Counted from the first letter of the stretch, positions 670 through 42,361 are shown. The stretch: 44,370 nucleotides of DNA from Rhizaria sp. SCN 62-66 (GCA_001724265.1 MEDY01000254.1:1-44370); one strand, 5' to 3'. Program-made: numbers and translations. The notes: generated by a model from the letters alone, not told the origin.

Positions 670-2238
670 ATGAGCACCAACGACGATTTTTCCCAGTCGG
701 GCGGGTCGACGCCTCAAAGCGGTAGCAACAACAAAACACGCGTCGTCATCCACCTCGTCGGCAGCACTCCTGGCAGTGGCAAGGCTATGATCATCCCACC
801 TAACGCCACCCTCGCGGACGTTCTTGCGCGCGCCACCGCCAAGCTCATCCCTTCCGGCGCAAACAACGTGACTGACAAAGATGCCTCAGCATCATCATCA
901 GAAGCGTCATCATCAGCAGCATCCTCAGCGGAGTCCACAGTCGCACTGCGCCACGTGTACACCGTTACGGGCGCCGAGATCACGGACGCAGAGGAGATTA
1001 TGCCCGACGATGTGCTCTTTTTCTCCTCCGCCTCCGCGTCGCACCTCGCCCCTGCGCCCGTGTCGCCCCTCTTCGCGCCGCCCGCCGCCGCCGCCGCCGC
1101 CGACAACAACAACAACAACAACAACAACAACGACGATCATGGCAACGTTATGAACAACGGCAGCAGTCTTGCTTCCTTGTCCTCCTCTGCTGCGCCCCCG
1201 CAGTACAACGACAACAACTTTGGTCCCGCAGAGGGCATTCCGTCCCCTGCACCCGTCAACAACAACAACAACAACTCCTATGACAACGCCGCCGCTGCTG
1301 CCGCCGCTCCTGCTGCTCCTGCTGCTGCTGCTGCTGCTGACGCGCCGCCCGCCGCGCGCGAGCCCGGCGTGCTGCGCCTGTTGGCGTCGCACGCGGCCGG
1401 GCTAGCGACGTGCGCCTACTCGACGGCGGCGGCGTATCTGAAGCAGTCCGGTCCGGCCGCCGTCCGCGCGGGCCTGCCTGAATGGGAGGCGCGCCTTTTC
1501 CCCCTGCTCGCCTCGGCGACGGCGCAGTCGGGCCCCGCGCTCGACTGGGCCGACGACCAGCTGCTCGCCGCGCGCGCAGGCTTCCGCGCTGCGCGCGCCG
1601 AGTTCCTGGCTTCCGAGGCCGGCCGCAACCTGCAGGCGTCGCTCGCTGCGCTCGCCGCCGCGGGCGCAGACGCCGCCTCTCGCACTACCGCCGCGGGCGC
1701 CGCCAGCGCCGAGGCCTTCTACGACACGGCCTCGGAGGCCTTCGCGACTCTGCGCGCGCGTGGCCAGGAGGGCGCCGTGGCGGCGGCGGAGCACCTGGCT
1801 CTGGTCAAGGAGAAGCTCGGCCACGCGTGGAACGAACAGCTCGCGCCGGCCGCGCGGGGCGTGTACGACATCTGGCAGGCGCGTCAGGCCGCCGCGGCGT
1901 ACGCAGAGGCCCAGCGCGCGCCGTTTGCAGGCGTCGCAGCCGGGGACGCGCGCCGCTACGGGCTCTCGCCCAACGCCGCTAACGCCCATAGTAGCGGGGC
2001 GGGGGACGCGATGGAGCGGGAGTATGCCGCGGTGGCCGCCGCGGCGGTGGCGGAGGTCTAGCAGCGCGACAGGCTCGCCGCGCGCAACGCCGCCGCCGCG
2101 GCTGCCGCGAGCAACAACAACAGCAGCAGCAATGGCAGTATTAGGGCAGTGAACGGCAATGTCAGTGGCGCTGGCGCCGGCGCTGGCTGTGTGAAGATGG
2201 GTGATGACGACATCGAGAATGAGCTTGATCTTGACTGA
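670..2238 (+). CDS. Protein with an N-terminal KHA-like (ubiquitin-fold) domain and low-complexity Ala/Asn tracts; ~522 aa, one internal TAG (2059-2061)
   Basis: RVVIH..GKAMIIP..TLADVLARATAKL...VYTVTGAEITDAEEIMPDDVLFF resembles the KHA pattern (GK.I.LP.SL.ELL..A..K...GAEIDD...I.DGD.L). ATG at 670. After the TAG the frame continues for 58 codons with the same composition (QRDRLAARNAAA...DDDIENELDLD) to TGA at 2236-2238, near the GC drop. Confidence 0.65.
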
Positions 2239-2778
2239 GCGTAGTCAGCTGAAGCGTGAGTGACACGCTTTTGAGTCAAAAGAAGCCTGGCATGCCTGCT
2301 CCGAAGCCTTCGGTGCTAAGTCATTATTGAATCTGAACGAACGCAATATGTATTGACGTGATAATGCTTCAGGGCCATGTAGGTTTTTAATCAACACTTT
2401 AGTAACAAAATGTGAGAGATATAGCACTAGATGAGATCATACGTATATAGCCACTTCAATTATTAAGATTAGACAAGTAATATTGACTTTGTCATAGTAC
2501 GCTCCCCTAAGTTTAACCCGAGATGTATCTTCACCCGAGTTAACTTAATACAACCAGTTTTTAACTTGTTTTATCCAAGATAAGTAAGATACAAATGTAT
2601 TATTATTAAAAATAATGCTCATGAAGAGGAAGTCTACAGACAAACTGTGACTTTGCTCTCTGGATATGTGCCGAGCTGCGCTTTGTTTTCATTTATTCAT
2701 CTTCTCTTGGCGTCGTCTTCTATCTGTACACACAAAGCCCCAGCCAGCCAGTCTGGCGGTCATCAGCGGACACAGCGC

Positions 2779-4032: not shown

Positions 4033-7000
4033 TCACGGTCGATTCTTCGGTGCGCTGCTCTCTGCTCCGCATATTGATGTTATCGTCTCCGCCGCGGCAG
4101 CAGCCGCAGCAATATCTTCCGCAACCGCGGCCGCCCTTGCTGTCACTGCCGCGCATACAGCCGTCGCGTGCTCTTCCATATCAGTGTGCGTGCGCTTTGG
4201 TGTTGAATCACCTGTTACTGTCCGAGCAGCCGCTGCCGCGGTGGATGTCGCCGCCGCAGTTCCACTTGCAGCGTTGGCCCCGGCGTGATACTCGCCCGAG
4301 CCGCGCGCGGAAAGGAACGCCAGCGAGCGCCGCGCGGTACAGGAGCTGTCATGGCTGAGCTCCTGCTCGCCGGGCGCGGGCCCAAGCGAAGCCCACTGCC
4401 CCGGGTTGGGCACCGCGCAGCCGCAGCGGCCGCGCGGAGGGGCTCCGGCAGAGGCGACTCTGTGGCGCGAAGTGAAGAAGAACACCTCAGGCAGGCAGTA
4501 TGATTGCGCGCCGGCGTCGCGTGGCAGCGCGCTCTTGGTGTAAGTCAGCACGCGCGCAAGCTCGCCCGCTTCGGCCTCACTTGCCGTCCCCGACGCAATT
4601 GCGGAAGAGGTCTCCGCGGCCGCTACAGACTGGGGGGACGTGCTGCAGGTCCCGCATGGCAGCGCCGCGCTGCTGACACGGTACACTGCCACATTTGCCG
4701 CTTCTGGCACTCGCGGCGGCCTGCGCCGTGGCGTGTGCGGCGCGGGCTTCAGAGTCACAGGTGCCGCGCTGTCTGGCTCCAACAGCGCTGCAGCTGCAAA
4801 GTCCATGTCGGCACTCTCAAGACTATCGCTGCTGTCCCGGCTGCGCGTGCTGTGTTCGCTGTCGCTGCCCTCGACCGGCCCAGCTGTTGTGGCCGCGACG
4901 CCCAGTGGGCCCTTGCGCAACAACTCACGCAGCTGCAGCCGCGTCGGCAGCGCGGTTCCAGCCAGTGTCGCTGTTTCGGTCGTCACTAACGCGCAGCCTG
5001 CTGCGGCTACCGTGTCGGGCGCGTCTTCAGTGACCGTGTACAACACGCGTTGATTTGGCACTGCGACCGCTGAAGTTGCTGTTGCCGTCTGGGAAGTCCC
5101 AGTCGCTACGGTTGGAAATGTAAACACGTGCGCAAGTGAGTGCTGAAACACTGGGGGCGCGAGAGCAACGCTTGAAAATCGCGCAAGCTTGCTTGATTCT
5201 GAAACAGCTACTGTTGAAGAAGTAGTACCTGCTGAAGTTGGTGCCGGCGCAAGGCCTGCAGCAGAGCGCATGCGGTGCTCAGCGCGCTCCAGCTGTGTGG
5301 CTGTGGCGCAAGCGGCGCTGTCGCTGACCGACGCAGCGCGGGCGCGCGCTGACCTTTCGATCTCGAGATCCTCGCTTTCATCATCCTCGTCAAGATTACC
5401 GTTCGCACGAGTTGATATCCCCATCGAGGGTGGCTTGGTGTCCGACGTTGAGAGCGCACGACGCCGCGGCTTGCGCGGACCTGCAAGTGCGCGTGCACTT
5501 GGTGGGCGCGGGGTCATTGCAAAAAGGCTGTCTGTATCTGATGCGTCACTTTGCGACTGTGAGGACAGTCCACCACCTGATTCAGATGGCCTTAGTCCTT
5601 TCTTTGGTGTTGGACTGACAGCGCGCGCCGGACTTGTGTCGATGTGAAGTTGTGGCTGCTTACGCAATGGTGTATGAAAGCGGCAAGCATTCTTAGCAAA
5701 GCGACATAGTGCAAGCCAAACGCCGTTTGTCCAGCCGAAGCCAGCCTGGCACGTGTACTCTCCACCACCAGCGGCCGCAGTTGGCGCGCGCACGTCGTAC
5801 TTCTCTGGCATTACACCGCGCGCAAGGAAGAAGAGCTTCGCGTGGAACAAGTAACGCCGCGCGGCCAAGTCAACAATCTGCGCGCTCAGCAACGCGCGTG
5901 TTGGTGGATACGGCGGCGGCTGCAACGGATTTGAGTGTGGGATAGTGACCGTGGGTACTGCTGCGATGTAATGTTGCGATTTCTCTGAAGGCGCCACTGC
6001 TACACGGCGTGTGTGAACGCGCGCTGCAATCGTGCCGACAAGTGACGCAGCGGCCACGGTTACCCACGCTGGCTCGCGTCGCAATCCAACACCGGTAGGA
6101 TCGAGATCCAGCGATGACAACGTTGACACACTCACAACATCTGAGGGCATATCGCGGCTGTTGTGGGCTTCGTCATTGATTAGAGGCAGTTGTTGGCGAG
6201 CGCGATCAAAAGCCTTTGCAACGCGAGCGCGACGACGGCTCCTTGTCGCTTCGCGGTAGCGCCACAGCGCGGCTCCAAACTCGGTTGTTGTGGCGCTGCG
6301 CAGGTCAACTGCAGTAGTCGCGTGGATTAGCCCAGCGTCGTGCGCATCCCACGGCAGCGTTCTCGCAGCAACCAGCGGTGCGCGGCCGTCGCCCGGCAGC
6401 AACAGCGGTGTGGCGTGGGCAGCACATGGTGGTGCAAACAAGTCATGCAAACGCGCAGCTGCCAGCAAAATGTCGTCGTCGACATCTGAATCTTCGTCAT
6501 TGTCAGCTCGAAAGTGTGCGCTAGCAATGTCTAAAAAGCCTTCAGGCAAAAATGCGAGTACAGATGCGTTTGCTGTAAGACCTGCATCCTCAATAGTAGC
6601 GCGCGCAGTAGTGGGCATGCTCAGAGCAGATGCGATTGCACGATGGTTTTGATTGTCCTTTTGACTGTGTGCATGAAAGCGCATGCCGGCTGTGTACGGC
6701 GCTGCAACGCTGGCCGGTCGCGCAAATGGCACACGAAGCGGCGGTCCGACTGCATCAAACATAACCTTCTCAGTGGATGACCACTGCGACGTGTCAACAT
6801 CACAGTTGTCAATAGACGCATCTGAAGTAGCAACAGATAAGGCGGAATCATTTGCAGCGGCGGCTTGAAGTGCATGCACGTCGGACAGCAGCGCAGGCGT
6901 CACTGCAAGGGGGCGTAATAGTCCCTCTGCGCCGCTTTTGGTCATCAGCACCTGCGTTGCGCCGCGCACACGCCGCGTCAGCACGAGCTCCAGATTCTCC

Positions 7001-10000
7001 GCACCGGTGCGTGGTGTCATGTTTAGTACGGCTTCAACTGCAGCAGCAGTTGCTGGCGCGCCCTCGCCGCAACGCCGCAACGCAGCAAGCAGCTCAGCTC
7101 CGCGGCCAGGCGCGGGCGGCGGTACTGGGGACGCTGCGGGCCGCGCGCGCAGGCGGCGGAGGGCGGCGTTTGCGGCTCGGGCAGCGTCAGTATACTGTGC
7201 GAGTCCGGCTGTGGCAACCCACGCTAACGGCGGCCAACCATTGGGCGCCTCCCACTGTAACTCTGACGCAGCAGCAACGGTGGAAACCGTGCTAGGTGCT
7301 ACTGAGTTCTCAACAGAGTCCATGTTTGCGTTCTCTGTGCTTGCACGGCGCGAATACTGCGGCGCAACACCGGCAGCAGCGCGCGCAAATGCTTCTGCCT
7401 CTGTGCGCATGCGCGCGCGCTGTTCACAACGAAGACGAGCAACAAGTCCTGACGGCGGTGTCCAAGTGGCCGCAAAGCCGCCTCGGTGCAGGAAGCGTTC
7501 GAACAGCACGCCGGTCACGCGCTGTGCCTGCGCCGGCGAGGCAACACGCGTGAAAAGCGGAAACGCTCCCGCCAGCGTCCACACATGCGTGCGGCGGCGG
7601 CGAGTGCGGAGATCAAAATCGAAGTAGTATCCCAGCAGTGGGTCCCACATGTACGTGTTGATGAGCCGCGCACGTGCTGCAGCAGCACGCCGTGCCTCAG
7701 CTGCGCCGTCTATTAGCGCGTCACGCGGGTCCGCGTCCAGTGCGCCAGGACTGCGTCGATGCTCACCTTTTGTTGGTGGAGCGCTTGCCTGGGCGCTGGA
7801 GTTAGCGCTTGCGTTGCTAGAATTAGCAGCTGCAAATGTTGCTCCAGCAGAGTCAAGACGCGCATGCAACGCATGAACAGCGGCTGCAGCAGCTACGACA
7901 CCAGCGCGGTCGATGACTTTCTCCGTGTCAGCAACGAGCCGCGTAAAGGTTGAGCCTGCGTCAAGAAAGGCCGCCAGCACATCCATCTCGAGAGTTAACA
8001 CGTGGAACTGTGTGCTGGCCGTCTCAGCCAGTGCTGCGTAAGCCAGTTCCGTTGCATACAACAAGCAGTTGAGATCGACCGGTAACACGCTCGAGGTTTC
8101 CAGATCAGCCAGCGTCGCGTTGGTACCAATTTTTTCAAGATCACTTTTTGCAGCAGCAACTTCTGTTGCAAGTGTGTCTGGCGACGGAGCGTCTAGCGGG
8201 GGTGCTGGTCGCAACGGGGCAGCGGGAAACCAGCGCGAACTAAAATCCCAGCCAGACTCGCACGCAGCGCGTGTGTTTGCGTACAGTGCCGCGCGCCGCC
8301 TGGCGTCGAAGCTCGGACCGTTTTCCGTCGCCTTTGCGGTTGCAGCAGAGGGGTAACCTGGAGGGTATGAAAGAGCATCGTTTAAGTAACGCAACGGTGC
8401 ATCGTCACTCGATTTGTGCGTTGTGCTAGCGCCTGCAGCAACATTAGTGTCAGCGTTAACATCTATGTTTTCTTTGTTGTCAGCGGTGTGAAATGGCGGA
8501 AGCTCCCCGCTCCACAGTCCTGCAAGCGCGCGCAGCTCCGCGTGAATGCGATCCGCAACACCGCGGCGCAGCGCGCAGGCAACATCGGCGCCCCAGCTCT
8601 CCGGTCGCGGGCTCGACGGCACAGCATCATCCCAGTACCTATTCAGTATACCGTACCGCACGCGCCGCCCTGCGCGCCGGCGCAACGCGTGAGCCACTGA
8701 CGCCGCCACTGCCTCAGAATCTGCGTGATTTTCTTTGCCACCCTTAATTGCAGCCGTAGCATTAGCAGAGGCTGCGTTGCGGCGAGCGCGAAAGGTGTCT
8801 GTCCAGTGGTGTGTAAGGCGTGCGTCAATGTCAGTAATACACACCGCGCGCGAGCTAGCCCAGTATGCGCCCATCTTAACTTCGCGCGACGCTATGCTTT
8901 GTCCGCCGGCCCCCGTTGCTGCACTTGCCTCAGTTGCCCACGCGCTTAAGTTGGCACGGTCACTTATGCCGCCGGCTGCTTGCCGTGCCGGATGCGGAAC
9001 TATTGGTGCGGGTGTCGCCATGAGAGTGTCAACAACATCGATATGCAGCGACGGGCACAGATCTGACACATTAGGCAAGCGCCAATGCGACGACGAAATG
9101 CGCGCACGTCGACGTTGCGACGCAGTCTTTTTAGTTTTTGCCGTAGTGCACTAGTCACACAGTTGAGGCGCCCGGCTGTGCTCTGCATCGACCACTGCGT
9201 TTACTGTTGCGACAGCCTCTGCGGGTGTGAGCGCGCACTTTGTCACTGCAAATACAGCATGCTCCAACTTGTGTGAGTGTTGCGTCTGCCCAGTCTTCCC
9301 AGCTGTAGCCGGGTGATGGCCACCCTTCCTATGCTCATCAAGCGTGCAGCGCACAAACGGGTTCTCGTTTGACCGTGGAGCTGTAAAATCAAGGACAAGC
9401 GGGCCGCGTGCGTGCTCATTGCCGCGCAGTGCGCAGATTGCCGCGTCGGGCACACCGGGCCCCACAGCCGCGCTGCAGTTAGAGCACCGCACGCGAGCTG
9501 CAGCAGCACGCTCGTAATAGTCGCGTGGCACGCTGATTACGGGTTCATCAAGCTCGCGTGTCATGCGCAATCGCATGGCACGTGAACTCCTCTCATTGAT
9601 GTTGTTTGTATCGCTTTCACTGTTTGTATCAGAGTCAGGGTCAGAGTCAGAGAGCCAGGTGTCGTCTTCTGAGGGTGGGTCTAATGGCAGTAATACGGCA
9701 CGGCGGAAACCCACTGTAGGAAGCACAAACCGCAACTCGTACTTGCTCTCATGTACCTCACTATTGTTTGCGCTGTTCTTTTTTATGTGTACGCGTGAGC
9801 CTGAACGACGAACCCATACTGGCGCAAGCCTTGTTGCGTCCTGCAGCGCACCTGTAAAAACCGTGCCAATTAGGCGGTCTGCGCCCTGTGTCCAAAAGGT
9901 TCCCTCCATGGCAGCAGCCAGCACGCCAACTTCGGCCACTGTATGCGCAGACGCGTGTTGGCCGAGCAGCTGTAACAGTAACGCCAGCACAGGCGGCTGT

Positions 10001-13000
10001 GAGCGAGTCAGGTAGTACGTGCGGTTTGCCGTCGGTGCAAAGCCGCGTGTGCGCAATAGCTGTGCTATGCAGTCAGCTACGTTGCGAGCCGCCGCTAGTG
10101 ACTCCTTGCGTTCGCGTGCAAGCAGGCCAAGACACGCAAAATAACTGTCCCAGTAATACATCTCGTGGAAGCGACCGCCGGGCACTGCAGGAAATCATGC
10201 AAAACAAGTTTGAGATCATACTCACATATGTGAGTTTAATATTTTCCAAATAAAAAAAGATGAGATAGAAATATAACGTTAAACAATTGAGTGTAGTGAA
10301 AACTATCATCATATTTTGATGTGGATGCGTTTGCGTACCAATGTAAGGCCGAGCAAGTGGAAATAACGACCCACGCTGAAGCTGCCGTGCACTTTCTCGC
10401 GCAGCTGTAGCGCCACCACTTGCTTCGAGCGCGCGTTCCCATGCACCAGGCTTATCTGCATGTGTGCTCGCACCCACACTGGCTGCGCTAATGTGCTATT
10501 CTGTGGTCTGGTCAACCTCACTTTCGTGGCTCTCCTTACTTGTGGACTTTAGGCCACGTGCGGCATGTCCCGGCGGCGGAGGCATCCCCAGATGTGCAAC
10601 AGGATCAAGATCAACTCGCTTAGTCACTCCGACGCCAGACTCAGCGTCGATGTCCATCTCTGCCTCACTCTCAATCAGGCGGGGACTTTGCGCTGCGGGG
10701 CGCACAGTCCAGTGCGCGCGCAGCAGCTGTCGCATCCGTCCTTCGCGCGCCAGCGGCGACCGCGGGGGCGCACGCATCAACGCCTGCAGGCCGCCAGCAG
10801 CTGCCGCCACGTCCGCGTCCTCTTCAGCTTCAGCCGCGACATCCGCGTCAGCCTCTGCCAGTGAGCTGTTCGCGGGCACCGCTCTGGTCGCTATGACCGA
10901 GGCGGGAGTCGAGGTCGTGAGGTGCAATGGCGGGGCTGAAGGTGCGCGCCGCGGAGATGGAGATGGCAGCGGTAGCAAACCGAACATTGACGCCGCACTC
11001 TTGCTGCTAGTAACGCCAGTGCTTGGACGAGCAACACCGCCGCGCTCTGCCAGTGCAGCGCGCACGTATGCTCGCGGCTTGCCATGGCCGGTGCGCTGCG
11101 TCTGCTCTTGTTCAAGCTTTAACTGTTGTGACTTTTGCACTGCTTCATTCTCAATCTCGCGCAAATTTGGGTGTGCATGTAACGGAGGCAGTGGTGGTAG
11201 CTGCGGCTTTGCGGTGCGCTGAGCCGGGGTTTGTCCTTGTTCTGGGATCTGAGACTGCGCTAGAGCTTGTGGGTGCGTCTGTGCTTGGCTTGGCGCATGT
11301 GTTCCGCTGCTGGTACTGTCACCTGTACTATGAACATGTACATGCCCCACCACAGGCTCAGGGCACTTGAAAAGAGGGTTGGCCAATGGCAGCGGCGCAG
11401 GCGCAGTTGTAGGCGCGCAAGCCAACTCGAGCGTGTCTGCAGCCTCTGTTGACTCATGCGCACTGCTGCTGCTGCTGTGAGGACGATCTGAGCTGCGCGA
11501 GCGCACCAAGTAAACCGGCGCTTCTACCGTCGTGGCCGCCGTTGTCACAGCATCAGAGTCAGCTGCGACACCCTCGTCAACATCAATGGCCGTCTCAGCG
11601 TCCTGTGCAGCGCTTGCAAGAGCGCGCACCGCCGTGTCGTAGCGCGCATCAGCGCGTTTTGCGCTCTCCGCCGCGATTACCGCGTCGGTGCCTACGTCTG
11701 TGCCTGTCTGAGGCCTGTGTGCTGCGTCGTGCGCAGCTGCTGCGACCGCAGACGAGCGCGAGAGCGAGTGCCAGAGGGACTGGGCGAGCGACGGCCGCCG
11801 CGACAGTGAGACCACAGGCGACCGAGACAGTGACCGCGACCGGGACCGGGACCGCGACCGCGATTCTCCGCGTGACTGCGAGCGCGATTGCAGACGCGAG
11901 TGTGACGGCGAGTGCGCAATCGGCGAGTGCAGCGGCGACGCAGACGGAGAGGACAGCTCCGACTCCGACTGTGACGCAGAGTCGGACTCGGACTCGGACG
12001 GCGATGGCAGTGTTGACTCACCGTGAGCACTTACAGCGCCTGCAGGCTTGCGATTGCCTGCGTTTACGTCAACGCTTGCTGCGCAAATACCAAGACGCGG
12101 GTCAAGTTCAAACGCGCGCGCGCACGCCTTTGCGTCTGCAGCGGCCGCGCGCGCTGCACTTTCGGCGTCTTCGCCTGGCGCCAGACCCGCGGCGCGCTGA
12201 AGCACGCGCGCACAGGCCAGCGCCGACGGAGACCGCGACCGCGACCGTGGACGCGGCTGCGCTGGTGTTCGTGACTGTGGTTGCGAATGCGCTTTTGAGC
12301 CGTTTGTGTGCGTTTGCGTCTGCGCGCGTGCGTCTGGAGGCAGCTCGTACGGCGCAAAGGCGTTTGCGAGCAACCGCGCTCGCAGTCGCGCTTTGGCAGT
12401 GTCTGGCGCTAGGGCAGATGCGGGCGCAACGCGAGCGCATTCTTTGCCGCGCTCCGCCCTGATGCGCGCGCACACAGGCCCTTCGACACCGTCGTCGCAT
12501 GCAAGTGCAGCCTCGTCCTCGTCCTCTTCAAGTGCGCACACCGGCAGGGAGCCATCACCGCTATCCTCACCGTGACCGCTTACTGTCACAGATGTGTTTG
12601 CGCTCGCGCTGCCGCCGAAATCTGCGCGCTGCGTGTAGGTAAGAAAGCGCTCGCCGCGCGGGTTGCGCGAGAGGCGCGCCCACATGAACTCGACGTGGTC
12701 CGCCATCCCGGGCAGCGCAGGCGCTAAGTCACCTGCGTCGTCGCCCTCTTCCGTGGTGAAATGCGCAAACGCAAAGCGACGCAGCGGTCCGCGTAGACGC
12801 GCACAGAGAGCGCGGGCGCGGCGCAGCACTTCGGATGCGGCGGAGGCACTTGCAGAGTCGCCGAGACCAGAGTCGCTTGAGCAGTCTGTGTCAGCAGCTG
12901 TAGTGCTGTTTGCATTGTCAGCAGGCAACAGTGAGTGAGAAAAAACCGATTTCGCGTGCATTAGAGAGCTCTTTATGGAATTGCTGCTTTTGCCGTTGCT

Positions 13001-13385
13001 TTTGTTGTTGCTGCTGCTGTTTTCGGTTGGTGTAGGGACAGAAAGCGAGCTGCTGCCAAGGTCGTTCTGTTCGTTGGTGTGGCTGGTTTGCGCGTTGCCA
13101 TCTGCGCCACTTGCGTCAAGATCTGGGAGCAGCGCTGGATCGGCCGTTTCCAGCGCGCGCGCAATACGAGCGAACGTCAGTGCACGCAGGTCAGGATGCG
13201 CGATGTACAGGCGGCGCAGCGCGCATAGCATCTCGCGCGGCGGAGTCAGACACCGCGCATCGACAAACGTCTTGAAGTCGCGGTACACGCCTGCAAGCTG
13301 GACGGCCTCAAACAGCAGGCCGCCGGTTTGCGTTACGTGGCTGTGGGACGTGATCTCCACAGGCTTCAATGCGTCGGCTTTGTGC

Positions 13386-13418
<33 letters not shown>

Positions 13419-31236: not shown

Positions 31237-34200
31237 TTACACGGTGATCGAAGTGACCTTGTCCTGAGCCATATTGTCCAGGTTCGCAAGCACGATCTGG
31301 CCGTCAAGCAGCGCAACCAGGTCGTCCTCGCGCGCCACGCGCTCCAGCTCGCTGGCCGTGGCCATGCGCGGCGCGGGCGGCACCAGCGCGCTGCGGTTGG
31401 CGAGCACCTCGCGCACGACCGCGCGCGCGCCGCCGACGGAGCACGCCAGCGTCGCGCAAGGCAGCAGCGTCGCGCGCACCCACGGGCCCACGGTCGCCGC
31501 GCCGGCGCCGGCGGCCGCGGTCTCCGCGCGGGCGGCGGCGGTGGCCACGGCGCTGTGGGGCACCGCACTCGCGTACAACACGGTCGCGGTCACCAGGTCA
31601 ACCGGCGCAGCGCTCGCACTGCCGTTCGCAGTGGCACCGGGCCACTGAGCGCCGGCGCAGGTGACAGCGTCGGCGGCCACACGCGCGAGCAACCACCAGG
31701 CCAGCGCAAGCACATCCGACGCCGCGCCAGAGCTCGCAACAGCGCCGGCGCGCGCGAGCACGGTGACCTGGATGGAGCAGAGCGCGCGGGGCAGCGCGAG
31801 TGCGCGCGCGGTAACGAGCAGCGGGCCCGCGCACGAGGGCAGCACGGCGGCGAGCGCGGCGGCGCGGCGCGGCGCGGCGGCGGCCACGGCGACTTGCACG
31901 GCGGCGGGGACCTGAAACTCCCACAGCGCCTCGCGTGGCAGCGCGGCCACGGGCACGACCAGCAGCGGCGCGTGCGCCGTCAGCCGCGACGCCACGCGAT
32001 GCGACGACCGCACCACGATCGCAGCGGCACCGTCCGTCTGGCTCTCAGGCGCAGACGCAGAATGGAGAGCGGCATCTGCGAGCGCGAAGTCGGCTGCGAG
32101 CGCGGCGCCAAAGGGGAAGAAGAGCGCGGTCTCGTCCGTGTCTCGCGCAGCGGGCGAGTCCTGCTCCGGGTCATCCTCCTCCTCCGCCGCAGCGGCCGCG
32201 GCGGCAGCACCCTTGCGCACGAGCCGTCCGTTGCGTCCGAACTCGAACAGGTCCTCCTCGACCTCCTCGTCCTCGGCGCCGTCAACGGCGGCGCTGCCGG
32301 ACTTGCGTGCGCGCGGGAAAACGCGGCCCGTGCGCGCGTCGCCCGCCGCGCCGCTTGCGTCGCCCAGCAGCAGCCGCGCGGCCGAGTGCAGCTCCTCCGC
32401 CGCGCACGGCGCGTCCTCCGCGTCTTCCTCCGGCTCACAGTCACCCGCATTCTCATCCTGCTCTTCGTCGTCGTCGGCATCGCGGACCTTGCTGGCGCGG
32501 GCAGCGGCGCGCATCGTCAACGCAAGCGCGCGGGCCGCGGGCGCGGGCTGGAGCAGCGCGGGCTGCGCGAGCGCGGCCTCCGCGACAAAAAGCAGCCCGG
32601 CGACGCAGCCGTTGCGCAGCGGGCCGCGCAGCGCGCCGCGGGCGACGGCGTGCGTGTGCTGCGCGGCGAGCAGCAGCTGCGCCAGCGCCGCGGGCTCCAG
32701 CGCCATCTCGGCCGCGCGCAGCCCGATCTGGCCGGCCAGGAAGCACAGCGCGCCCGCGGCCGTGCCCTGCGCGTAGGGCCCGATGTTGGCCGGCGCCCAG
32801 GCCGAGCGCGACTGCACGTGCAGGTAGGACGCGCCCGCAGCTGCGCGCCCGCGGGCGAGCAGCGCGCTGCCAGCAACACAGCTGCTGCTGCTACTGCTCG
32901 TGTTATCGCAGCTCTGCTGCTGCAGCTGCTGCAGATGCGCAGTATTGTTCTTGTTGGCGTCCACGAAGCCCTCGAGGCTCCACGGACCGTGTGGCAGCCC
33001 GTCCTCGGCGGAGGCGGCGGGCGGAGTGCGGTCGGCGGCGCTGGCTTCGGCGCGCGCGAGCCCAACGCAGGCGCGCGCGGGCGGGCCGCCGCCGAAGAAG
33101 CGTGCGTAATGCCTGTTGGCCGCCGCGAAGCCCGATTCGGCGCCCGCGGCGGGCGCGCGCAGGGCCGCGGCGGGCAGGTACAGCGACGTCGCCACGGTGC
33201 GCACGGCAGCGTCCACAGCCTCGCTTGCACTATCGGTCGCCGAGGCGGCAGAAGTGACTGTGGCGGCCGGGGGCAGTGAGGGCGCGACGAGCGCGTGCGT
33301 GATGTGCGCGACGGCCTCGGCGCTGGCCGCGGCGGCGGCGGAACGCACCGCAGGCAGCTGCCACGCGGAGACGACGCCGGTGCACTCAAGCTGCGCGTCC
33401 GCGCGCACGGCGAAGCGCGGCAGCAATTGCACAGAAGCGGCAGCCTTTTCAGTCGCCGTAGACGCGAGAGCGGGCAGAAGCGCGCGCTCGGCCGCCAGCG
33501 CCGGGGCCAGCTCGCTCTGGACCTCGTCAGCGTCAGGAGCAGTGACTGGCTCTTCCGGTTGCTGCTGAGCTGCAGCAGCGGTGGTGGTGTTCTCGGGCCA
33601 GCCGAGCGCGGCCGCAGCGGTGACGTCCTGCTCCGAGAGCGGCTCGACGCGCCAGCGCACTGGCACCGCGCGCCAGATGTCGTCGCGCGTGGAGCCGACG
33701 ATGTTCCACTCGTCGACGACGAGGCGGCCGCGCGCGAAGAGCCGCGGGCAGAAGAGCGTGAAGGTCTCGTACTCGCCGCCCTCACCGCACACGCTGACGC
33801 CGATCTCGTCGTTGAGCGCCTCCAGCTCGGGCCGCAGGTCGCCCAGCTCGCGCGTCATGTGTTTCTGCGTGAGGCCGTAGGCGGCGACCTTGACGAGCAC
33901 GGCGCGCAGCCCGCTGGCGACAATCCGCGCGAGCAGCGGGCGCTGCGGCTGCTGCCAGAGGAAGGCCAGCGGCACGAGCCCCAGGCGCGCGCACACGAAC
34001 TCGACGCGCGCGCGCTGGTAGGTCGACAGCACGGCGCCGCACGAGACGGCTTGCACGTCGGGCTGTGCAGCGAGCACGGCGCGCAGCAGCAGCTCCAGGT
34101 CCTCGATCTCGTCCTCCAGCGCGGCTGACAGCGACTACGACGCTGTGCTGTCGGCGGCGGCGGAGGCAGAGGCGGCGCTCGCGTGGGTCGTCGAGGCGGC

Positions 34201-34677
34201 GTCGGACTCAACGGTCTGAGACTGTGGCGGCGGGTGTGACCTGTGGCTGCTGCTGTTGTCGCCGTCGAGCGGGGGCAATGCAACGGCGCCCGTGGCGGCA
34301 AGCTCGCGCGTGGCGGGCGCGGGGACGCGGTAGTAGAAGAGCGAGCGGTTGGCCGAGGCGCCGGCGATGACGCGCTTGTAGAGCGGGACGCCGACGCACT
34401 CGGCGAGCGAATCGACGAGCTGGTGCCCCACCGTCTGGAACATGAACGAGTTCAGCCCCATCGACGCCGACGGCGGCGGCTGCAAGTTCGCCAGAGCGAC
34501 AACCTAAACAGATCAGGATCAAAGATTTGAAAGAAGATTATGAGCTCCAGTGCATATATGAAGCTAAAAGAAAGGAAGAGTGGGTGAAGATAGTCGTACC
34601 TCATGGCCATGACGCATGCATTCAAGCAAGTTGAAGCAGCTGTCCTTGCCACCACTGATCAAGCCGACAACTTTCAT
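31237..34677 (-). CDS. DPH6: Diphthine--ammonia ligase with C-terminal YjgF/RidA-like domains; ~1,114 aa; exons 34677-34600 and 34503-31237; internal TAG at 34137-34135
   Basis: MKVVGLISGGKDSCFNL..GHE|VVALANL; SFMFQTVGH; DEIEDLELLL; GAVLSTYQRARVEFVCARLGLVPLAFLWQ; VCGEGGEYETFTL; YjgF-like segments GPPARACV, LHVQSRSAWAPANIGPYAQ and LPREALWE. Ends in TAA. Confidence 0.93.
34504..34599 (-). other. Intron in DPH6 (96 nt, phase 0)
   Basis: GTACGA...GTTTAG. Removal gives the conserved GHEVVALANL. Confidence 0.9.
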
Positions 34678-35209: not shown

Positions 35210-38200
35210 ATGCGCCCGACCGCTCTGGCCCGGGGGGATGATCCTCTCTCTCTGATGGCGAACGACCGTCTCCAGCAGCAGCAACAGCAGCAACAGCAGC
35301 AGCAGCAGCAGCAGCAGTGCGCATACGGGTCGCTGCCCGGCAGCATGGTCGCCGCCCCGGGCGCGCAGACGCCCAACACCACCGCGGGCGCGCCGCCCCA
35401 GTTTGCGACGGCGCAGCCGAAGCTGTCCGTGCCTCCCCTGGGCCTGCGCCCCGCGGCTGGCGAGGCCGCGCCGATCCGCCCGCTCTACTCGTCGACGCAG
35501 TACGCGCCGGGCTCCAACGCGCTGCCGGGACTCTCTGCCGCCGCCGTCGCAGGGGTCGCACCGATTCAGTCGCGCGTGAGCCTGCTCGCCTCGGGCAGCC
35601 GCGGCCCGGGGCTGAGCGCGGCGGGCGACGCCTCCCCTACGGTAGGCTCGCCGCCCTCCGTGACCGAAGACGGCGTGCTGGACCTCCGCGCCGCTGAGCG
35701 CGCGCTCGAGCAGCGCAAACTTGCGCAGCAGCAGCAGGCGCAGAGCAACGCCGCGACCGGAGGGTCAGGCTCCGGCGGTGCGGGCTCCGGCGGCAGCGTG
35801 GGCCAGCAGCAGCAGTACCCCGCGCCCCTGCAAACGGACCCGGTGCCCTTCTCGCTCTACCCCGTCCCCGCGGCGCTGCAGACCTACTATGCGGACGACT
35901 CCGAGGGGCCCGCGGCGGTGGCGGGCGAGCAGCGCGTGCTGCACCTGCACCGCATCCACCACGTGGCGCTGGCGTCGGGCCGCGAGACGCTGGGCGACCT
36001 TATCGCGACCTCGTACCAGCTCGTCTTCGTACCGTACAAGGAGCAGCCACCCACGGTGCGCGGCGGCGTGCAGATGTACCCCATGTCGCGCACGGTTTCG
36101 ATCCCGCTCAACAACATCGAGGCCTGGGTGATCGACAAAAAGTCGGCACGGCCCGTCGCGCGCGTCGGCGAGGCCGCCATGTGCGTCGACATCCTCGGCA
36201 AAGACGCGCGCCACATCCGCATCGGCTTCGAGTCGGCGCAGGACGCGCAGTCGGCCACGGCCACCATCATGGCTTACATGTATCCCACTAGCACGCGCTT
36301 CCTCTTCCCGTCCTGCCTGCGCGCGCCCCCGCCCGCGGCGCCTGCGCACCTCGACGGGTGGAAGCTCTTCAGCCCCGCGGGCGAGTTCGCGCGCATGGGG
36401 CTGCCCAACAAGGCCTTCGCCGTGGGGCCCTACAACGCCGACTACGCGCTCTGCAGCACGTACCCCGAGGTGCTGTGCGTGCCCGCCGAGGACGTGCTGT
36501 CACCCGCGCAGCTCGCGGCCTCGGCCAAATTCCGCTCGCGCCAGCGCCTGCCCGTGCTGGTGTGGAAAAACCCCCATGGGTACCAGACCATCTGGCGCTG
36601 CTCGCAGCCGCGCATCGGGCTTGTCTCGTCGCGCTGCGCGGAGGATGAGGCGCTGCTAGACTACGTGACCAAGAGCAACAAGTGGGCCGAGGCCACGGTG
36701 ATCTTCGACGCGCGGCCACGCATGAACGCCGTGGGCAATCAGATCGCGGGCAAGGGCGTCGAGTCTGAGTCGACGTACACGACGTGCCGCGTGCGCTTCA
36801 TGGACATCCACAACATCCACGCCGTGCGCGACAGCTACAAAAAGCTCTGGCGCGCCGTTCTCTACGCCAAGACGGAGCTGCAGTATCTCACCGAGGTCGC
36901 GCAGTCTGGCTGGTTCGCGCACATGACGTCGATCCTCTCGGCCGTGCATCAGATGGTGGCATGCATCGACCGCGAGCAGCAGTCGGTCGTCACGCACTGC
37001 TCTGACGGCTGGGACCGCACCTCACAGCTCACGGCGCTGACGAAGCTCTGCGTGGACCCCTACTACCGCACCACGCGCGGCTTCATGGTGCTCGTCGAGC
37101 AGGAGTGGCTATCCTTCGGGCACAAGTTCTACGAACGCATGGGCCACGGCGTGCGCGAGCTCCACGACCAGCGCTCGCCGGTCTTCATCCAGTTCCTGGA
37201 CTGCGTGTACCAGTTGACGCGCCAGTTCCCGCGCCACTTTGAGTTCACCAGCGAGTTCCTCGCCCAGGTCGCCGTGCACAGCTACTCGTGCCGCTTCGGC
37301 ACCTTCCTGTGCAACTCCGAGGCCGAGCGGCGCCAGGCCAAGCTCGCCGAGACCACGCCCTCGCTGTGGACGTTCCTTCTGTGCTCGCCGCAGGCCGTGG
37401 CGGGCCATCTCACCAACGCCGCGTTCTCGCCCAGCGGCCGCGGTGACAACGTCGGCATCAACGAGGCCTGGCCCGTGCCGCTGCCCATGGGCTCCTTCCT
37501 CGCCTCCGCCGCCGCCGCTGCTGCGAATGCTGCGCCCGCTGTTGCTGCAGTGGCTGCGGCCCCTGTCGTGGACGAGAACGACTCGATCGCCCAGCTCCCC
37601 GCGCCCACCATCCCCGCCGACGCAGACTCTGCCGACGCCAACGCTGGCGCTAACACTGACTCAAACGCTGTCGAACCGACCAAGTCTGCCGCCAGCTCCG
37701 CTCCCGCGACCCCGGATGTCGTCGTCGACTCCAGCGCCGTTGCCACCATTAGTGCCAGCGCCAGCGCCAGCTCTGCCGAGAGCGCCGACGCTGACGCCGA
37801 CGCCGACACGGAGGGCAAGAGCCCCGAGACGGCGGTGTCCGACTGCGCGCTGTCATGCAGCGAGTCGCAGCACCTGGTGGCCGTGACGGGCCCCGGCGGT
37901 GTGGCCGGGCTCATGACGCCGCCGCCCGGGCTGCTCGGCGCCGGACACTGCGGCGGCGACGCGCTCGCGCTCGCACTCGCTTCCCCCGCCATCAACGCCA
38001 GCGCCAGCGCTAGCGCCGAGGCGGAGGCGGAGGCGGAGGCGGCGACGGCGGCGAGCGATGCCGCTGAGAAGGCTGACGAGCAGGAGCAGAATGCCGACTC
38101 CTCTGCCCCTGCTGCTGCAGCTGCGCCCGTGACGGCTGCGGCCGCGCTCGCCGCCGCGGCTGCGTCTGCGTCGTCGCCGTCTCCCGTCGTCTCCCCCGTC

Positions 38201-38653
38201 CCCGCGCCGACGACCCCGTTCGCGCCCGCGGCCACCGCAGCGGCAGCCGCCGCACCGGAGCCGGCCAAGGGTCTGTTTCCGCGCCTGCTGGGCGACGCCT
38301 ACACCCACCCTCTCTCGCGCGGCACTGTACTCTACCCGTGCGTCTCCCCACGCGCGCTGGCCGTGTGGCCCGAGTTTTGGCTGCGCTTCCAGAAGGAGGA
38401 CGCGGCGCTGCTCGGCGGCGGGCCCGGCGCGGTTTTCCCGGGCGGCGGCGCCACGTGTGCGTCGCTGCTCGACACGCGCGCGCGCGTCGCCAACGCGCAT
38501 CTGCACTGGGCGCGCTCCGTCGCCAGCGAGGCCAAGGCCGAGGCCGTGGGCGCGCAACAGGAGCTCGCCCGTGTCAGCGCCGAGCTGGCCGAGAGGGACC
38601 GAGAGGTCGAGCGCCTCCGCGCCGCGCTGCTCGCCGCCGGCATCCAGCCTTGA
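35210..38653 (+). CDS. Myotubularin-family phosphoinositide 3-phosphatase, catalytically intact; ~1,147 aa
   Basis: PH-GRAM-like region (GDLIATSYQLVF...DILGKDARHIRIGF); GWKLF; NADYALCSTYP; FRSRQRLPVL; RCSQP; DARPRMNA..N..GKGVE; NIHAVRDS; active site HCSDGWDRT; DPYYRTTRGF..LVEQEWLSFGHKF; SPVFIQFLDCVYQL; FGTFLCNSE; C-terminal coiled coil. Start is ATG 35210 or 35255. Ends in TGA. Confidence 0.95.
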   Translation: MRPTALARGDDPLSLMANDRLQQQQQQQQQQQQQQQCAYGSLPGSMVAAPGAQTPNTTAGAPPQFATAQPKLSVPPLGLRPAAGEAAPIRPLYSSTQYAPGSNALPGLSAAAVAGVAPIQSRVSLLASGSRGPGLSAAGDASPTVGSPPSVTEDGVLDLRAAERALEQRKLAQQQQAQSNAATGGSGSGGAGSGGSVGQQQQYPAPLQTDPVPFSLYPVPAALQTYYADDSEGPAAVAGEQRVLHLHRIHHVALASGRETLGDLIATSYQLVFVPYKEQPPTVRGGVQMYPMSRTVSIPLNNIEAWVIDKKSARPVARVGEAAMCVDILGKDARHIRIGFESAQDAQSATATIMAYMYPTSTRFLFPSCLRAPPPAAPAHLDGWKLFSPAGEFARMGLPNKAFAVGPYNADYALCSTYPEVLCVPAEDVLSPAQLAASAKFRSRQRLPVLVWKNPHGYQTIWRCSQPRIGLVSSRCAEDEALLDYVTKSNKWAEATVIFDARPRMNAVGNQIAGKGVESESTYTTCRVRFMDIHNIHAVRDSYKKLWRAVLYAKTELQYLTEVAQSGWFAHMTSILSAVHQMVACIDREQQSVVTHCSDGWDRTSQLTALTKLCVDPYYRTTRGFMVLVEQEWLSFGHKFYERMGHGVRELHDQRSPVFIQFLDCVYQLTRQFPRHFEFTSEFLAQVAVHSYSCRFGTFLCNSEAERRQAKLAETTPSLWTFLLCSPQAVAGHLTNAAFSPSGRGDNVGINEAWPVPLPMGSFLASAAAAAANAAPAVAAVAAAPVVDENDSIAQLPAPTIPADADSADANAGANTDSNAVEPTKSAASSAPATPDVVVDSSAVATISASASASSAESADADADADTEGKSPETAVSDCALSCSESQHLVAVTGPGGVAGLMTPPPGLLGAGHCGGDALALALASPAINASASASAEAEAEAEAATAASDAAEKADEQEQNADSSAPAAAAAPVTAAAALAAAAASASSPSPVVSPVPAPTTPFAPAATAAAAAAPEPAKGLFPRLLGDAYTHPLSRGTVLYPCVSPRALAVWPEFWLRFQKEDAALLGGGPGAVFPGGGATCASLLDTRARVANAHLHWARSVASEAKAEAVGAQQELARVSAELAERDREVERLRAALLAAGIQP
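35273..35317 (+). repeat. Coding CAG/CAA repeat (Q15) in the myotubularin N-terminus
   Basis: 15 consecutive CAR codons, none of them TAG. Confidence 0.9.
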
Positions 38654-39139: not shown

Positions 39140-42100
39140 TCAGCGGACGAACTTCTTGTTCTTGTCCGCGGCCTTGAGCTTGGCGACCATGCTCGAGATG
39201 TCGCTCTTGTCCTCGGCAGCGCTCGTCGCCTTACTCACCGCCGCGCCGGGGGCCTTCGCCGCGTTGGACGCCAGCTTGCTCTTGCGCTCAGCCAGTGCGA
39301 GCTCCTGCTCCTTGGCGCGCTCGCGGCGGCGGCGCTGCGCCTCGGCCAGCAGCTCCTCGGCGCCCTGCGTGGCCTTAAAGCCCGTTGCTGTGGGGTCGAT
39401 CGCGAACGCAGGGTCCTCAAACACGGCCGCGAAACGGTCGTCCTTGACGTTGACGCGGAAGCCCTCGTCGTCGCCGCCCACGGACACGCCCGCGGCGGCC
39501 GCCTTGCGCGCGCGCTTGACGCGCTGGCTCATGTCGATCTCCTCGTCGTCGTCGCTGCCCGACTCGGCGGCGGCGACGGCCGCGGCAGCCTTCTTGACGC
39601 GGAGCGCCTCGGCGATGAGCGCGTCCTCGCGGTCACGGTTGCGAACGACCTTCTTGGCCTCAGCCTTCTTCTTGTCGCGCTGCTCCTTGAGCAGCGCCTT
39701 GAGCGAGTAGCCGCCGCGGCGCGCGTCGGCAGCGTCCGAGTTCTCGCCAGAGTCGGAGCCGTCCGAGGCGCCAGCCATCATCTCCAGCCGCGCGCGGTCC
39801 GCCTCGCGCTTCTTCTTGGCCGCATCCTTGGCGCCCTTGCCGCCGGCGTCACTGTCGTCGCCGGAGGATGACGAGGCCCCGGCGTCGGCGAAGGTCGCGC
39901 GCTTGCCGCCCTTGCCCTTCTTGCCATCCTTGCCGTCGGTGTCGCCATCCTTCTTGCGCGGGTCGACGTAGTTCCCGTCCTTGAAGGCGTCCTTGAAGAA
40001 CTCGTCGTTGGGGTCATAGTCGATCGCGTCGTCGTCGTACAGCGAGTTGGACTCGTGGCGCTTGCGCACCGCCGCAGCGCTACCGCTGCCGCCGCCGTCC
40101 TCGTCGTCGTCGTCGTCGCTGCCGCCACCACGGCGCGCGCCACCGCGGGGCGTCTTGAGGTAGATGGCACCCTGGCGACGCTGCGCGTCCTCGGCAGCGG
40201 CCTTCTCCTTGCCGCGCTTGATGGCTGCCTTCTTCTTCTCCTTCTTCTTGTCCAGGAAGGCCTGCCACTGCGACTTGGCCTCGCTCTGCTGCGTCGCGCG
40301 GTCCTTGTTGCCCGCGTTGGCGGCGATGCGCTCCGCCGCCATCATCAGTGCCGGCTGGAACACGATCTCGGCGCCGTCAGACTCGGACTCGGACGCCGAC
40401 TCGGTCTCCTCGCTGTCCTCGTCGCTGTCATCGCTGTCATCGTCGCTGCCGCGCGCGAGCGCCTTGTTGGCCTTCTTGATGGTGGCCGCGCGGAGCTTGT
40501 CCTTCTCGCTGCGGCCGCCGCGCACGTCGTCGAGCAGCGCCGCAAACGAGGCGCGCGCGCGCCGCTTGAGCAGCACCGTCTTCTTCTTCTTCGGCTTCAG
40601 CCCGCCCTCGCCGTCGGCATCGCTGTCACTGTCGTCGGTGTCGCTACCTTTGTTCCCCGTGCCGAGCTTGCCGCCCTTCTTGCCGGCCTTCTTGGCGGCC
40701 TTGGCGTCGGAGTCCTCCGAGTCGGACGAGGTGTCGGCGTCGTAGTCGGTCACGGGCACGTCGGTGCCCTCGGCCTCCTCGTCGACGTCAGAGGCCATGA
40801 ACACGTCCAGGTCGGCGGCGTCGTAGTCGGCCTTGGTGAAGGCGCGGCGCAGCTGCTTCGCGCGGCGCGGGTCTTCGCGGTCCCACGTGCACTGCACGCG
40901 GCTGTGCTGCAGCGCCGTCGTAGCGAAGGATGGCGCCATGTAGCCCACAGGCAGCTTGGTCGCGTCGTCGCGCAGGTCCGCCTCGTCGAAGGCGTGCTCC
41001 TTAGGCACGAAGCGCATGTCGATGATGTTGGCGGACCGCATGAACTCGAGTCCGTCGGCCTCGCGGTATACGTGGAGAGCCGTCGCCGCAGAGTCAAAGG
41101 TGCACACGGCGAAGAAGTAGCGCAGCTTGCGCAGCTCGTAAGCGCGCAGCTTGGCCTGGTCGATAGACTCGTCGCCCTCCTCGCGGTCCTGTTGCAGCGC
41201 CAGCGCGTCCTCGTCAGAGTCGACGTCGTCATCCTCGTCCTCGTCCTCCATCGCAGCACCGGCGGCAGCGGCGTCGTCGTCGTCGCCGCCGTTGGCGTCG
41301 GCGACGCGGCGCAGCTCGCGCTCAACCTCGTCGTCGTCGATCTCGGAGCCGATGTCGTCCTCCTCCTCGTCCTCGTCGTCGTCGTCGCTGTCGTCGCTGC
41401 TGTCGCCGCCGGCGGCCTTCTTCTTCTGCTGCTTGGCGGCCTTAGCCTTGGCCTTGGCCTCGGCCTTGGCGTCGGCGGCGGCCGCGGCGGCGGCCTCGGC
41501 GGCCTCGCGAGCCTGCGCCTTCATGAGGCGCTTGTGCACCTTGCTGTCGCCCTTCTTCTCGCCGTCACCGTCCACGGCGGCCACGGCGGCGGCGGCGGGG
41601 GGGGAAGGCGTGGGCGCGGCGGTGGCGGACTTGGAGAAGAGCCCCGAGGGCCCGAAGCGCGCCTCGTGCGCCATATGCTCCTTGCCGAACTGCGACGCGT
41701 ACACGGCGACGCGCTCCACGCGGCCGTTGGCGGGCAAGAACGAGGCGACCACGGCCAGGAGATCGGTCGCGCGCAGCTGCTCCCACTCGAGGTTCACCAG
41801 CGCGAGCCGCGGCGTGGGCTCCGAGGTCACGCCCGCGGAGGCGCCCGCGATGCCGCCGTGCAGCGTGTCGCCGTCGCCCGCCGCGTCGTCCGAGTCCTCG
41901 GAGTCCGCGGAGTCTGAGGCGGCGTCGGAGATGTCGCCGTCGGTGCCAATGTCGGTCGAGTCGGAGCCGATGTCGGTCGAGTCCTCCTTCTGCTCCTCGT
42001 CGTCATCCTCACTGTCAGTCTCGGCCTTCTTGGAAGACTTGGAGGACTTGGCGACAGTCTATTTGTCGGACTTGGCGGTAGCGGGCTTGGCGGACTTGGT

Positions 42101-42361
42101 AGGCTTCTTCTTGTTGTCGTCGCTGTCCTCGTCGTCCTCGTCTTCGGCGGCGGCGACGGAGAGCTTGTTCTGCACGTTGCGGCTCTTGAGCTCGACCTTG
42201 CGGCCGAACTTGTCAAAGGCGCCGCCCGTGGAGAAGTCCTTGTCCTTGATCACCGTCTCAAAGCGGCGGTCGACCACACCGCTGCTTTTCTTCTCTGTCA
42301 TCCGCTTAAAGCGCGGGTCAGACTTGGCATGGCTGAAACGGGGATCGTTGAAGCCAGACAT
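39140..42361 (-). CDS. ESF1: Nucleolar pre-rRNA processing protein ESF1; ~1,073 aa; internal TAG at 42061-42059
   Basis: N-terminal DPRF...DPRF...VDRRF...DKDF...DKFGR; TPRLALVNLEWEQLRATDL; VAVYASQFGKEHM..E...GP; KLRAYELRKLRYFFAV; DGLEFMRSANIIDMRFVP; TTALQHSRVQCTWD; NUC153 motif DDRFAAVFEDPAFAIDPT. The two ORF-track pieces join in frame through the TAG plus 76 open codons. Ends in TGA. Confidence 0.92.

Follow-up and report, generated by a model that had tools for sequence, protein, structure and literature searches.

We found that UAG is very probably decoded as an amino acid in the nuclear genes of the organism from which contig MEDY01000254.1 derives, with UGA (mostly) and UAA as the terminators. 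The whole stretch of 44,370 bases, referred to here as the window, has a GC content of 53-75% and long reading frames on both strands, and the scope of this reading is this 44-kb locus. Six TAG codons lie in frame in five genes, namely g1 (site 2059), a trehalase (sites 9153 and 10498), g5 (site 26558), DPH6 (site 34137) and ESF1 (site 42061). All six had been picked out in a first-pass annotation of the DNA, and all six were found in place and on the right strand; the bases following them (CAG, CAC, TGC, GCC, TCG and ACT) were also as listed there, and no context is shared. The same annotation stated that no gene model ends in TAG and that no gene has an internal TAA or TGA, and both statements held: the 10 models end in TGA (7) or TAA (3), and the nine coding sequence (CDS) stretches, with 11,858 codons in all, contain 6 TAG, 0 TAA and 0 TGA, which gives a TAG frequency of 0.51 per 1,000 codons. 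Its central claim, that UAG is a sense codon while UGA and UAA terminate, is supported by an orthologue of g5, by conserved blocks lying collinearly on both sides of the TAGs and by a drop in GC content after the TGAs.

Site 26558 in g5 is decisive for UAG being read as sense, as judged from protein alignment. We searched the 241 residues around this TAG, with X at the TAG itself, against 1.84 billion representative proteins by phmmer at E 0.001, and three proteins passed (P0307, P0308 and P0309). P0307, a JGI protein of 556 amino acids (aa) on a contig of 3,281 nucleotides (nt), aligned as a single stretch over query residues 4-232, and BLASTP between P0307 and g5 gave 138/231 identical residues (60%, E 4e-72). 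The sequence surrounding the TAG is RRFGVAAP-X-ANWDHL in the window and DRFGLAAP-E-ANWDAL in P0307; the TAG stands opposite exactly one residue, Glu, between identical AAP and ANWD. Similarly, P0309 (35% identical) spans the TAG, and a more distant homologue carries Pro in this column. The 94 codons past the TAG contain 25 invariant columns, including KGP.PYW.ELK, with a GC content at third codon positions (GC3) of 0.93. The 40-codon flanks have a GC3 of 0.88 upstream and 0.90 downstream, and AT-rich non-coding sequence starts only past the TGA at 26843. Given an orthologue with one residue at this column and conserved columns downstream, an intron, a true stop or a pseudogene could not explain site 26558. 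The third protein, P0308, is the window's own 77-aa tail of g5 past the TAG (26615-26845, plus strand), which was called as a separate open reading frame (ORF) and occurs on 6 contigs, of three different sources. This fits a TAG that is reproducible across assemblies, and it is an example of how genes of this organism have been broken up in public databases by gene finders that assume the standard code.

As to g5 itself, a short motif of the GD[VI]D[LV] type (e.g. TGDVDL), embedded in Ala/Pro-rich spacers, recurs at least 10 times in the protein, and its C-terminal domain, KGP.PYW.ELK..F..E.AR, is common to P0307 and P0309. P0307 is named 'Meckel syndrome type 1 protein' by JGI, and Pfam gave no family in g5.

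Codon usage was scored as log2-odds per codon, over 40 codons on each side of each TAG, with a score trained only on TAG-free genes. The first-pass annotation had claimed coding-type composition past every TAG; this was borne out at 2059, 26558, 34137 and 42061 and failed at both trehalase sites. At the former four sites the claimed frame was the best one on both sides (+0.23 to +1.06, GC3 0.80-0.90), while the flanks of the trehalase sites scored -0.28 to -0.58 with a GC3 of 0.40-0.55. Introns, and sequence past true stops, had negative scores in the claimed frame. The 90 nt past the 10 terminal stops had a GC content of 0.30-0.53, compared with 0.52-0.73 past the six TAGs, and the drop from GC-rich to AT-rich sequence follows the TGAs at 2236 and 26843 rather than the TAGs. 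Moreover, conserved blocks in collinear order lie on both sides of the TAG at five of the six sites, and for site 2059 the evidence consists of codon bias and composition.

Truncation at the TAGs of ESF1 and DPH6 had been expected to cost these housekeeping genes their core domains, and we confirmed that RRM_ESF1 and NUC153 would be lost from the former and PF01902 profile positions 70-203 from the latter. In an alignment of eight ESF1 proteins, the TAG is preceded by the start Met and by 12 invariant N-terminal columns, among them D6, R8, F9, P16, R17, F18, D31, R33 and F34; the invariant columns from T183 on, together with RRM_ESF1 and NUC153, lie downstream. The two flanks of the ESF1 TAG have codon log-odds of +1.06 and +0.97, and the flanks at ESF1 and DPH6 have a GC3 of 0.85-0.90. 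A homologue search gave no close relative of ESF1, the best matches being 46-52% identical over the RRM only, so that the TAG column is uninformative in this gene. In DPH6, the matches to PF01902 run collinearly through profile positions 1-23 in exon 1 (E 8e-4), 36-70 before the TAG and 70-203 after it, and the TAG falls where the last two matches meet. Taken alone, the 122-residue stretch preceding the TAG gives a sub-threshold match (E 0.016), and the part after the TAG matches at E 2.9e-19; the codon log-odds are +0.23 upstream and +0.76 downstream.

Sites 9153 and 10498 are probable sense-read TAGs. The spliced trehalase is one CDS of 3,141 codons, and both TAGs lie in lineage-specific inserts within its catalytic domain. 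A TreF-type hidden Markov model (HMM) made from six homologues matched eight collinear stretches along the trehalase as spliced by script: profile positions 41-102 and 85-155 matched residues 63-320, positions 150-270 matched residues 1071-1196 across the splice junction, and positions 269-557 matched residues 1587-2589. The N-terminal motif matched P0193 by BLASTP at E 1e-8. On either side of 9153, PF01204 passed its threshold independently, with 96.6 bits upstream (profile positions 122-255) and 125.4 bits downstream (to position 507). The frame of 10498 had been described in the first-pass annotation as open to a stop codon; instead, it reaches an intron, AT-rich and 154 nt long, 52 codons downstream. 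On the TreF-type HMM, the model with this 154-nt intron reached 120.3 bits, compared with 99.3 bits for a 355-nt intron that would remove TAG 10498, the latter being 21 bits worse. The family match depends on the segment just past TAG 10498 (...GSLFPLARPYI, with VPGGRF across the junction). In 1,107 codons the trehalase inserts have 0 in-frame stops besides the two TAGs, compared with 26 and 64 in the other frames, which argues that the inserts are under constraint to keep the frame open. Codon bias is weak throughout the gene, with a GC3 of 0.51-0.73 compared with 0.85-0.92 in its neighbours.

The N-terminal ORF of the trehalase and the 52-codon exon end matched 0 Pfam families even at E up to 10, and phmmer of the N-terminus against PDB gave only a low-complexity match to an SR protein (E 1.6). 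The N-terminus was also left uncovered by an HMM made from 60 calcium-binding-type trehalases, whereas the TreF-type HMM reaches it. The gene is a giant trehalase (4033-13615, minus strand), in which low-complexity inserts, the longest of 718 codons, split the catalytic domain into at least eight blocks.

For site 2059, a sense reading of the TAG is held with moderate confidence. The flanks of this TAG in g1 have codon log-odds of +0.53 upstream and +0.47 downstream with a GC3 of 0.90 and 0.80, respectively, and the AT-rich non-coding stretch begins at 2241, just past the TGA at 2236, not past the TAG. The 58-codon open extension after the TAG, taken alone, has an estimated chance P of ~0.37.

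Several observations weigh against a sense reading of UAG, and many of them fit an account in which the TAGs never reach the ribosome, being removed with unrecognised short in-frame introns or altered by RNA editing. Four introns were recognised in the window (in the DPH6, trehalase, lipase and enkurin genes), and the one in the enkurin gene alone was seen spliced: complementary DNA (cDNA) contigs of runs X2 and X3, both from one sample, skip its 324 nt, which have GT..AG ends. This intron keeps the frame, and TAG at 43072 is the sole stop within that frame; it serves as a control, showing that an intron can look like read-through and that a frame remaining open past a TAG does not suffice as proof. 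Similarly, the inferred lipase intron of 438 nt is a multiple of three with both exons in the same frame, and it carries an adjacent in-frame TAG and TGA at 15685-15690. In DPH6, the TAG at the 3′ end of the intron is a splice acceptor and not a codon. None of the six TAGs lies at a hyperconserved column; they are found in linkers or inserts with little conservation, in regions inserted relative to homologues. Both trehalase TAGs have flanks that score as introns do. When any in-frame GT..AG pair was allowed, 65-106 candidate introns per site were found at the four sites tested, with 65 and 89 around the trehalase TAGs, and a 57-nt in-frame candidate (GTAAGG..GCGCAG, 10539-10483) surrounds TAG 10498. 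In addition, a contig from a poly(A) library (X1), covering 34102-34585, has TAG 34137 unchanged, but it retains the DPH6 intron and may be DNA or pre-mRNA.

We consider removal by splicing or editing very unlikely on balance. At 26558 there is one residue between identical flanks, and any intron would delete conserved residues. The flanks of 2059, 26558, 34137 and 42061 are exon-like (GC3 0.80-0.90, positive scores), in contrast to the four introns, which have a GC3 of 0.19-0.52 and negative codon scores; the enkurin intron, with a codon score of -0.13, a GC3 of 0.52 and a GC content of 50%, is likewise unlike the flanks of these four strong sites. When the donor had to resemble those seen in the four recognised introns, TAG-containing in-frame candidates numbered 0 at four of the six sites; 9153 had a single, poor one, and 2059 had 40, the frame at the latter site being unconstrained by any conserved block downstream. 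The pieces compared from public runs were contigs and concerned the window beyond its first 24 kb, with sites 2059, 9153 and 10498 outside this range. Among the 15 joints listed, none skips a TAG site, and among the pieces listed none spans 26558 or 42061, so that they are uninformative on those two sites. The spliced enkurin intron in X2 and X3 shows that the organism was transcribed, and no piece listed for these two cDNA runs spans a TAG site.

Further points on the unfavourable side concern the terminators and the decoding machinery. With TAG assumed to make up about 1/5 of stops, 0 TAG among 10 terminators has a P of ~0.1; the window contains 0 tRNA genes (ARAGORN), and eRF1 is not among its genes; and site 26558 alone informs on the amino acid, the other five being in unalignable linkers. 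UAG might be an ordinary stop, the six sites being leaky or programmed for read-through, or it might have a dual meaning, as in ambiguous codes, with sense in the interior of genes and termination close to their 3′ ends. Ten terminators are a small and weakly informative sample in this respect, UAG is very rare at the frequency given above, and the base after the TAG is C at two of the six sites. C in this position makes the leakiest stop context. Programmed read-through resembles the present case in that a stop lies inside a continuous frame. However, the six contexts differ, and no stable structure was found in the 120 nt after the TAGs (z 0.64, 1.49, -0.98, -0.42, 1.44 and -0.28; 0/6 below -2). 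Unless read-through were efficient, ESF1 and DPH6, both essential housekeeping genes, would be deprived of their core domains. Read-through would also be needed in five of the 10 genes, which is far above known frequencies of programmed read-through. We therefore regard read-through or dual meaning as very improbable, and decoding of UAG as an amino acid as the better account of the six sites.

We also weighed whether the TAGs might be artefacts or marks of decay, arising from assembly or sequencing error, a pseudogene contig or a haplotype bearing nonsense mutations. The first-pass annotation had argued that random damage would not yield a single stop type, and this argument proved weak: with the codon usage found here, 67% of single-base nonsense paths yield TAG, and six TAGs out of six have a P of ~0.09, which is a further point on the unfavourable side because exclusively TAG is then not strong evidence against random nonsense. 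Moreover, the sequence comes from metagenome-type assemblies. On the other hand, 11,858 codons contain no frameshift, TAA or TGA, the longest open frames reach 1,705 codons, and codon bias is strong; frames so free of frameshifts and of other stops, and so strongly constrained, speak against damage. The pieces listed from X1 and from the DNA-type run X4 differ from the window by ~0.1% (3/4,145 and 5/5,531 letters, respectively), a count that leaves out one divergent X4 piece and in which X1 and X4 may be the window's own source, and the X1 piece keeps its TAG as described above. The recurrence of the 77-aa P0308 on contigs from three sources likewise goes against an assembly error. A self-BLAST with 121-nt flanks of the six sites gave no paralogous copy in which a sense codon might stand at a TAG position. 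Taken together, artefact or decay appears extremely unlikely.

We then considered the source lineage. Public runs containing window sequence are labelled activated sludge or wastewater, and a protein identical to the window's H+-pyrophosphatase is found in ENA and Logan assemblies, the longest contig there having 44,431 bases. The best named matches of this pyrophosphatase are rhizarian (Mataza, foraminifera, Lapot, Paulinella and Plasmodiophora). For this single gene, a quick maximum-likelihood tree was made from 30 rows, all of them other than sainouroid. The window grouped with P0058, a 78%-identical relative from a JGI metagenome contig of 6.9 kb (support 100), and then with L004 (100), and the sister group of this clade consisted of the cercozoans Mataza and Paulinella, with a Shimodaira-Hasegawa-like approximate likelihood ratio test (SH-aLRT) value of 95. 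The source organism is thus probably a cercozoan (Rhizaria). An enkurin-domain protein, also encoded in the window, points to a flagellated eukaryote. Altogether, the source would be a GC-rich, intron-poor, flagellated eukaryote of activated sludge or wastewater, probably a cercozoan.

L004 is a JGI metagenome contig of 74.9 kb with a GC content of 53% whose pyrophosphatase is 70% identical to that of the window, and it was the best of 7 loci in a metagenome scan with the window pyrophosphatase; a scan of genome contigs with the same protein gave bacterial pyrophosphatases only, at 38-40% identity. The pyrophosphatase gene of L004 ends in ...LGPLFVSRVS-TAG, followed by AT-rich sequence, and TAG ends one of six complete frames on this contig. 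This belongs with the points against, in that the code change is not widely shared, and the sense reading of UAG, if real, would be younger than the split between the window and L004. The two have no gene in common besides the pyrophosphatase, so there are no orthologous TAG columns to compare. Positions 1-22379 of L004 hold long intron-poor frames, one of them with a TAG end, and show no synteny with the window.

The amino acid inserted at UAG can be estimated from the single informative site. Glu would be the leading candidate, at about even chances, while Gln is an unlikelier choice and the other amino acids, taken together, stand about where Gln does. This estimate was reached by weighing known reassignments along with the local identity near 26558, which is ~72% over 18 neighbouring residues in the P0307 alignment. 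Gln is the commonest outcome of stop reassignment, and reassignments to Glu, to Leu and to other amino acids occur as well. Both GAG to TAG and CAG to TAG are single base changes. As to mechanism, a tRNA with the anticodon CUA would read UAG, by analogy with other reassignments (PMC5304391, PMC10553269, PMC11687900), and eRF1 would no longer recognise UAG efficiently, as in characterised cases. Such a tRNA(CUA) may have arisen by one anticodon change from tRNA-Glu(CUC) or tRNA-Gln(CUG). If the reassignment were recent, UAG would be re-entering genes by mutation at tolerant sites, and the rarity of UAG here and its presence only in poorly conserved linkers fit a recent reassignment.

The closest known case is Rhizaria sp. 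exLh (Sainouroidea), for which the relevant passages of PMC5304391 describe a nuclear code with UAG for Leu and with UAA and UGA as stops, based on 384 UAG in 71 genes, 82 of 86 hyperconserved positions being Leu, and terminators of 56 UAA and 15 UGA. exLh is rhizarian, as the source of the window probably is; it has UAG alone reassigned with UAA and UGA as terminators, the pattern seen here, and it was likewise recognised through in-frame UAGs in conserved genes. In contrast to exLh, the window is GC-rich, UAG is rare in it (6/11,858), TGA dominates among its terminators (7 versus 3) and its informative column carries Glu, not Leu; its pyrophosphatase groups with Mataza and Paulinella, in a tree without sainouroid sequence. 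Within the literature covered, supplementary tables being outside its scope, there was no report of this organism, nor of a UAG reassignment in Cercozoa besides exLh. A tentative reading, to which we give somewhat less than even chances, is that a wastewater cercozoan has recently reassigned UAG alone to Glu, keeping UGA and UAA as stops, independently of exLh and after the split from L004. On this reading, a young reassignment with low usage would have been caught early.

UAG is decoded as Gln with UAA as a stop in the metamonad Iotanema spirale, where UAG codons are described as scarce (passages of PMC5304391), and in the ciliates Hartmannula sinica and Trochilia petrani (passages of PMC11687900); the latter source describes three UAG events in phyllopharyngean ciliates (to Leu, Gln and Gln). 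These organisms resemble the window in that UAG alone is reassigned, and the scarcity of UAG in Iotanema matches that found here. In contrast to them, the window is probably cercozoan, and the aligned site shows Glu, Gln being possible. A Glu reading of UAG is described for Oligohymenophorea sp. PL0344, with UAA as Lys and UGA as the sole stop (passages of PMC10553269), and for Blastocrithidia nonstop, with UAR as Glu and UGA as Trp (passages of PMC12153298). The window may share UAG as Glu with PL0344, but it is not from a ciliate, and in it TAA ends three of the 10 genes and is never in frame. Blastocrithidia is likewise a non-ciliate flagellate with UAG as Glu; however, all three stops are reassigned there, whereas TGA and TAA are clean terminators in the window. 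Codes in which UAA and UAG change together (NCBI tables 6 and 27-31) were rejected on the same behaviour of TAA.

Nuclear code changes are rare outside ciliates, and few have UAG changed while UAA is kept as a stop. To our knowledge, no NCBI table has UAG as Glu while UGA and UAA stay terminators, and the literature covered gave no such code either. If the sense reading of UAG is true, the window adds a further non-ciliate case of UAG-only change, in a GC-rich genome in which UAG is still rare. It would then allow a test of the order of stop capture, i.e. whether loss of the terminator or gain of the suppressor tRNA came first, as well as of whether UAG and UAA are really coupled and whether Rhizaria changed their code more than once. 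If UAG as Glu were confirmed with both other stops kept, this would be a new code variant.

The features of the window are collected in Table 1. Its Pfam-named products are trehalase (PF01204), class-3 lipase, H+-pyrophosphatase, DPH6 (PF01902), a myotubularin-like phosphatase and ESF1 (RRM_ESF1 and NUC153). Coding stretches are GC-rich, in contrast to the AT-rich introns and intergenic regions.

Table 1. In-frame TAG codons, genes, exons and introns of the window
Feature	Position	Strand	Remarks
In-frame TAG	2059..2061	+	codon 464 of g1
In-frame TAG	9151..9153	-	codon 1436 of spliced trehalase
In-frame TAG	10496..10498	-	codon 1039 of spliced trehalase
In-frame TAG	26558..26560	+	codon 1945 of g5
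In-frame TAG	34135..34137	-	codon 149 of DPH6
In-frame TAG	42059..42061	-	codon 101 of ESF1
Gene g1	670..2238	+	522 codons + TGA; without Pfam family
Small gene	2779-3540	-	253 codons, TAA end; apparent N-terminal signal peptide (MRLATLLFALSVVLMSFAPAFFASA)
Trehalase exon 2	4033..10184	-	contains TAG 9153; TGA end
Trehalase intron (inferred)	10185..10338	-	154 nt, GTACGC..CTGCAG, GC ~0.30
Trehalase exon 1	10339..13615	-	N-terminal motif, 718-codon insert, TAG 10498, SLFPLARPYI segment
Lipase intron (inferred)	15382-15819	+	438 nt, GTTCGT..CTCAG
Gene g5	20726..26845	+	2,039 codons + TGA; GD[VI]D-type repeats; conserved C-terminal domain after TAG
H+-pyrophosphatase	27654..30815	+	without TAG; TGA end; codon-bias training gene and lineage marker
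DPH6 exon 2	31237..34503	-	TAA end
DPH6 intron (inferred)	34504..34599	-	96 nt, GTACGA..TTTAG
DPH6 exon 1 (MKVVGLISGGKDS...)	34600..34677	-	PF01902 profile positions 1-23, E 8e-4
Myotubularin-like phosphatase	35210..38653	+	without TAG; TGA end
ESF1 CDS	39140..42361	-	1,073 codons + TGA
Enkurin-gene intron	43064..43387	+	324 nt, in frame, GTATGT..CACAG

The H+-pyrophosphatase of the window has an N-terminal extension of ~330 residues, rich in Pro, Ala and Gln, before its Pfam domain (27654-28630, plus strand), and the P0058 pyrophosphatase is ~100 residues shorter overall than that of the window.

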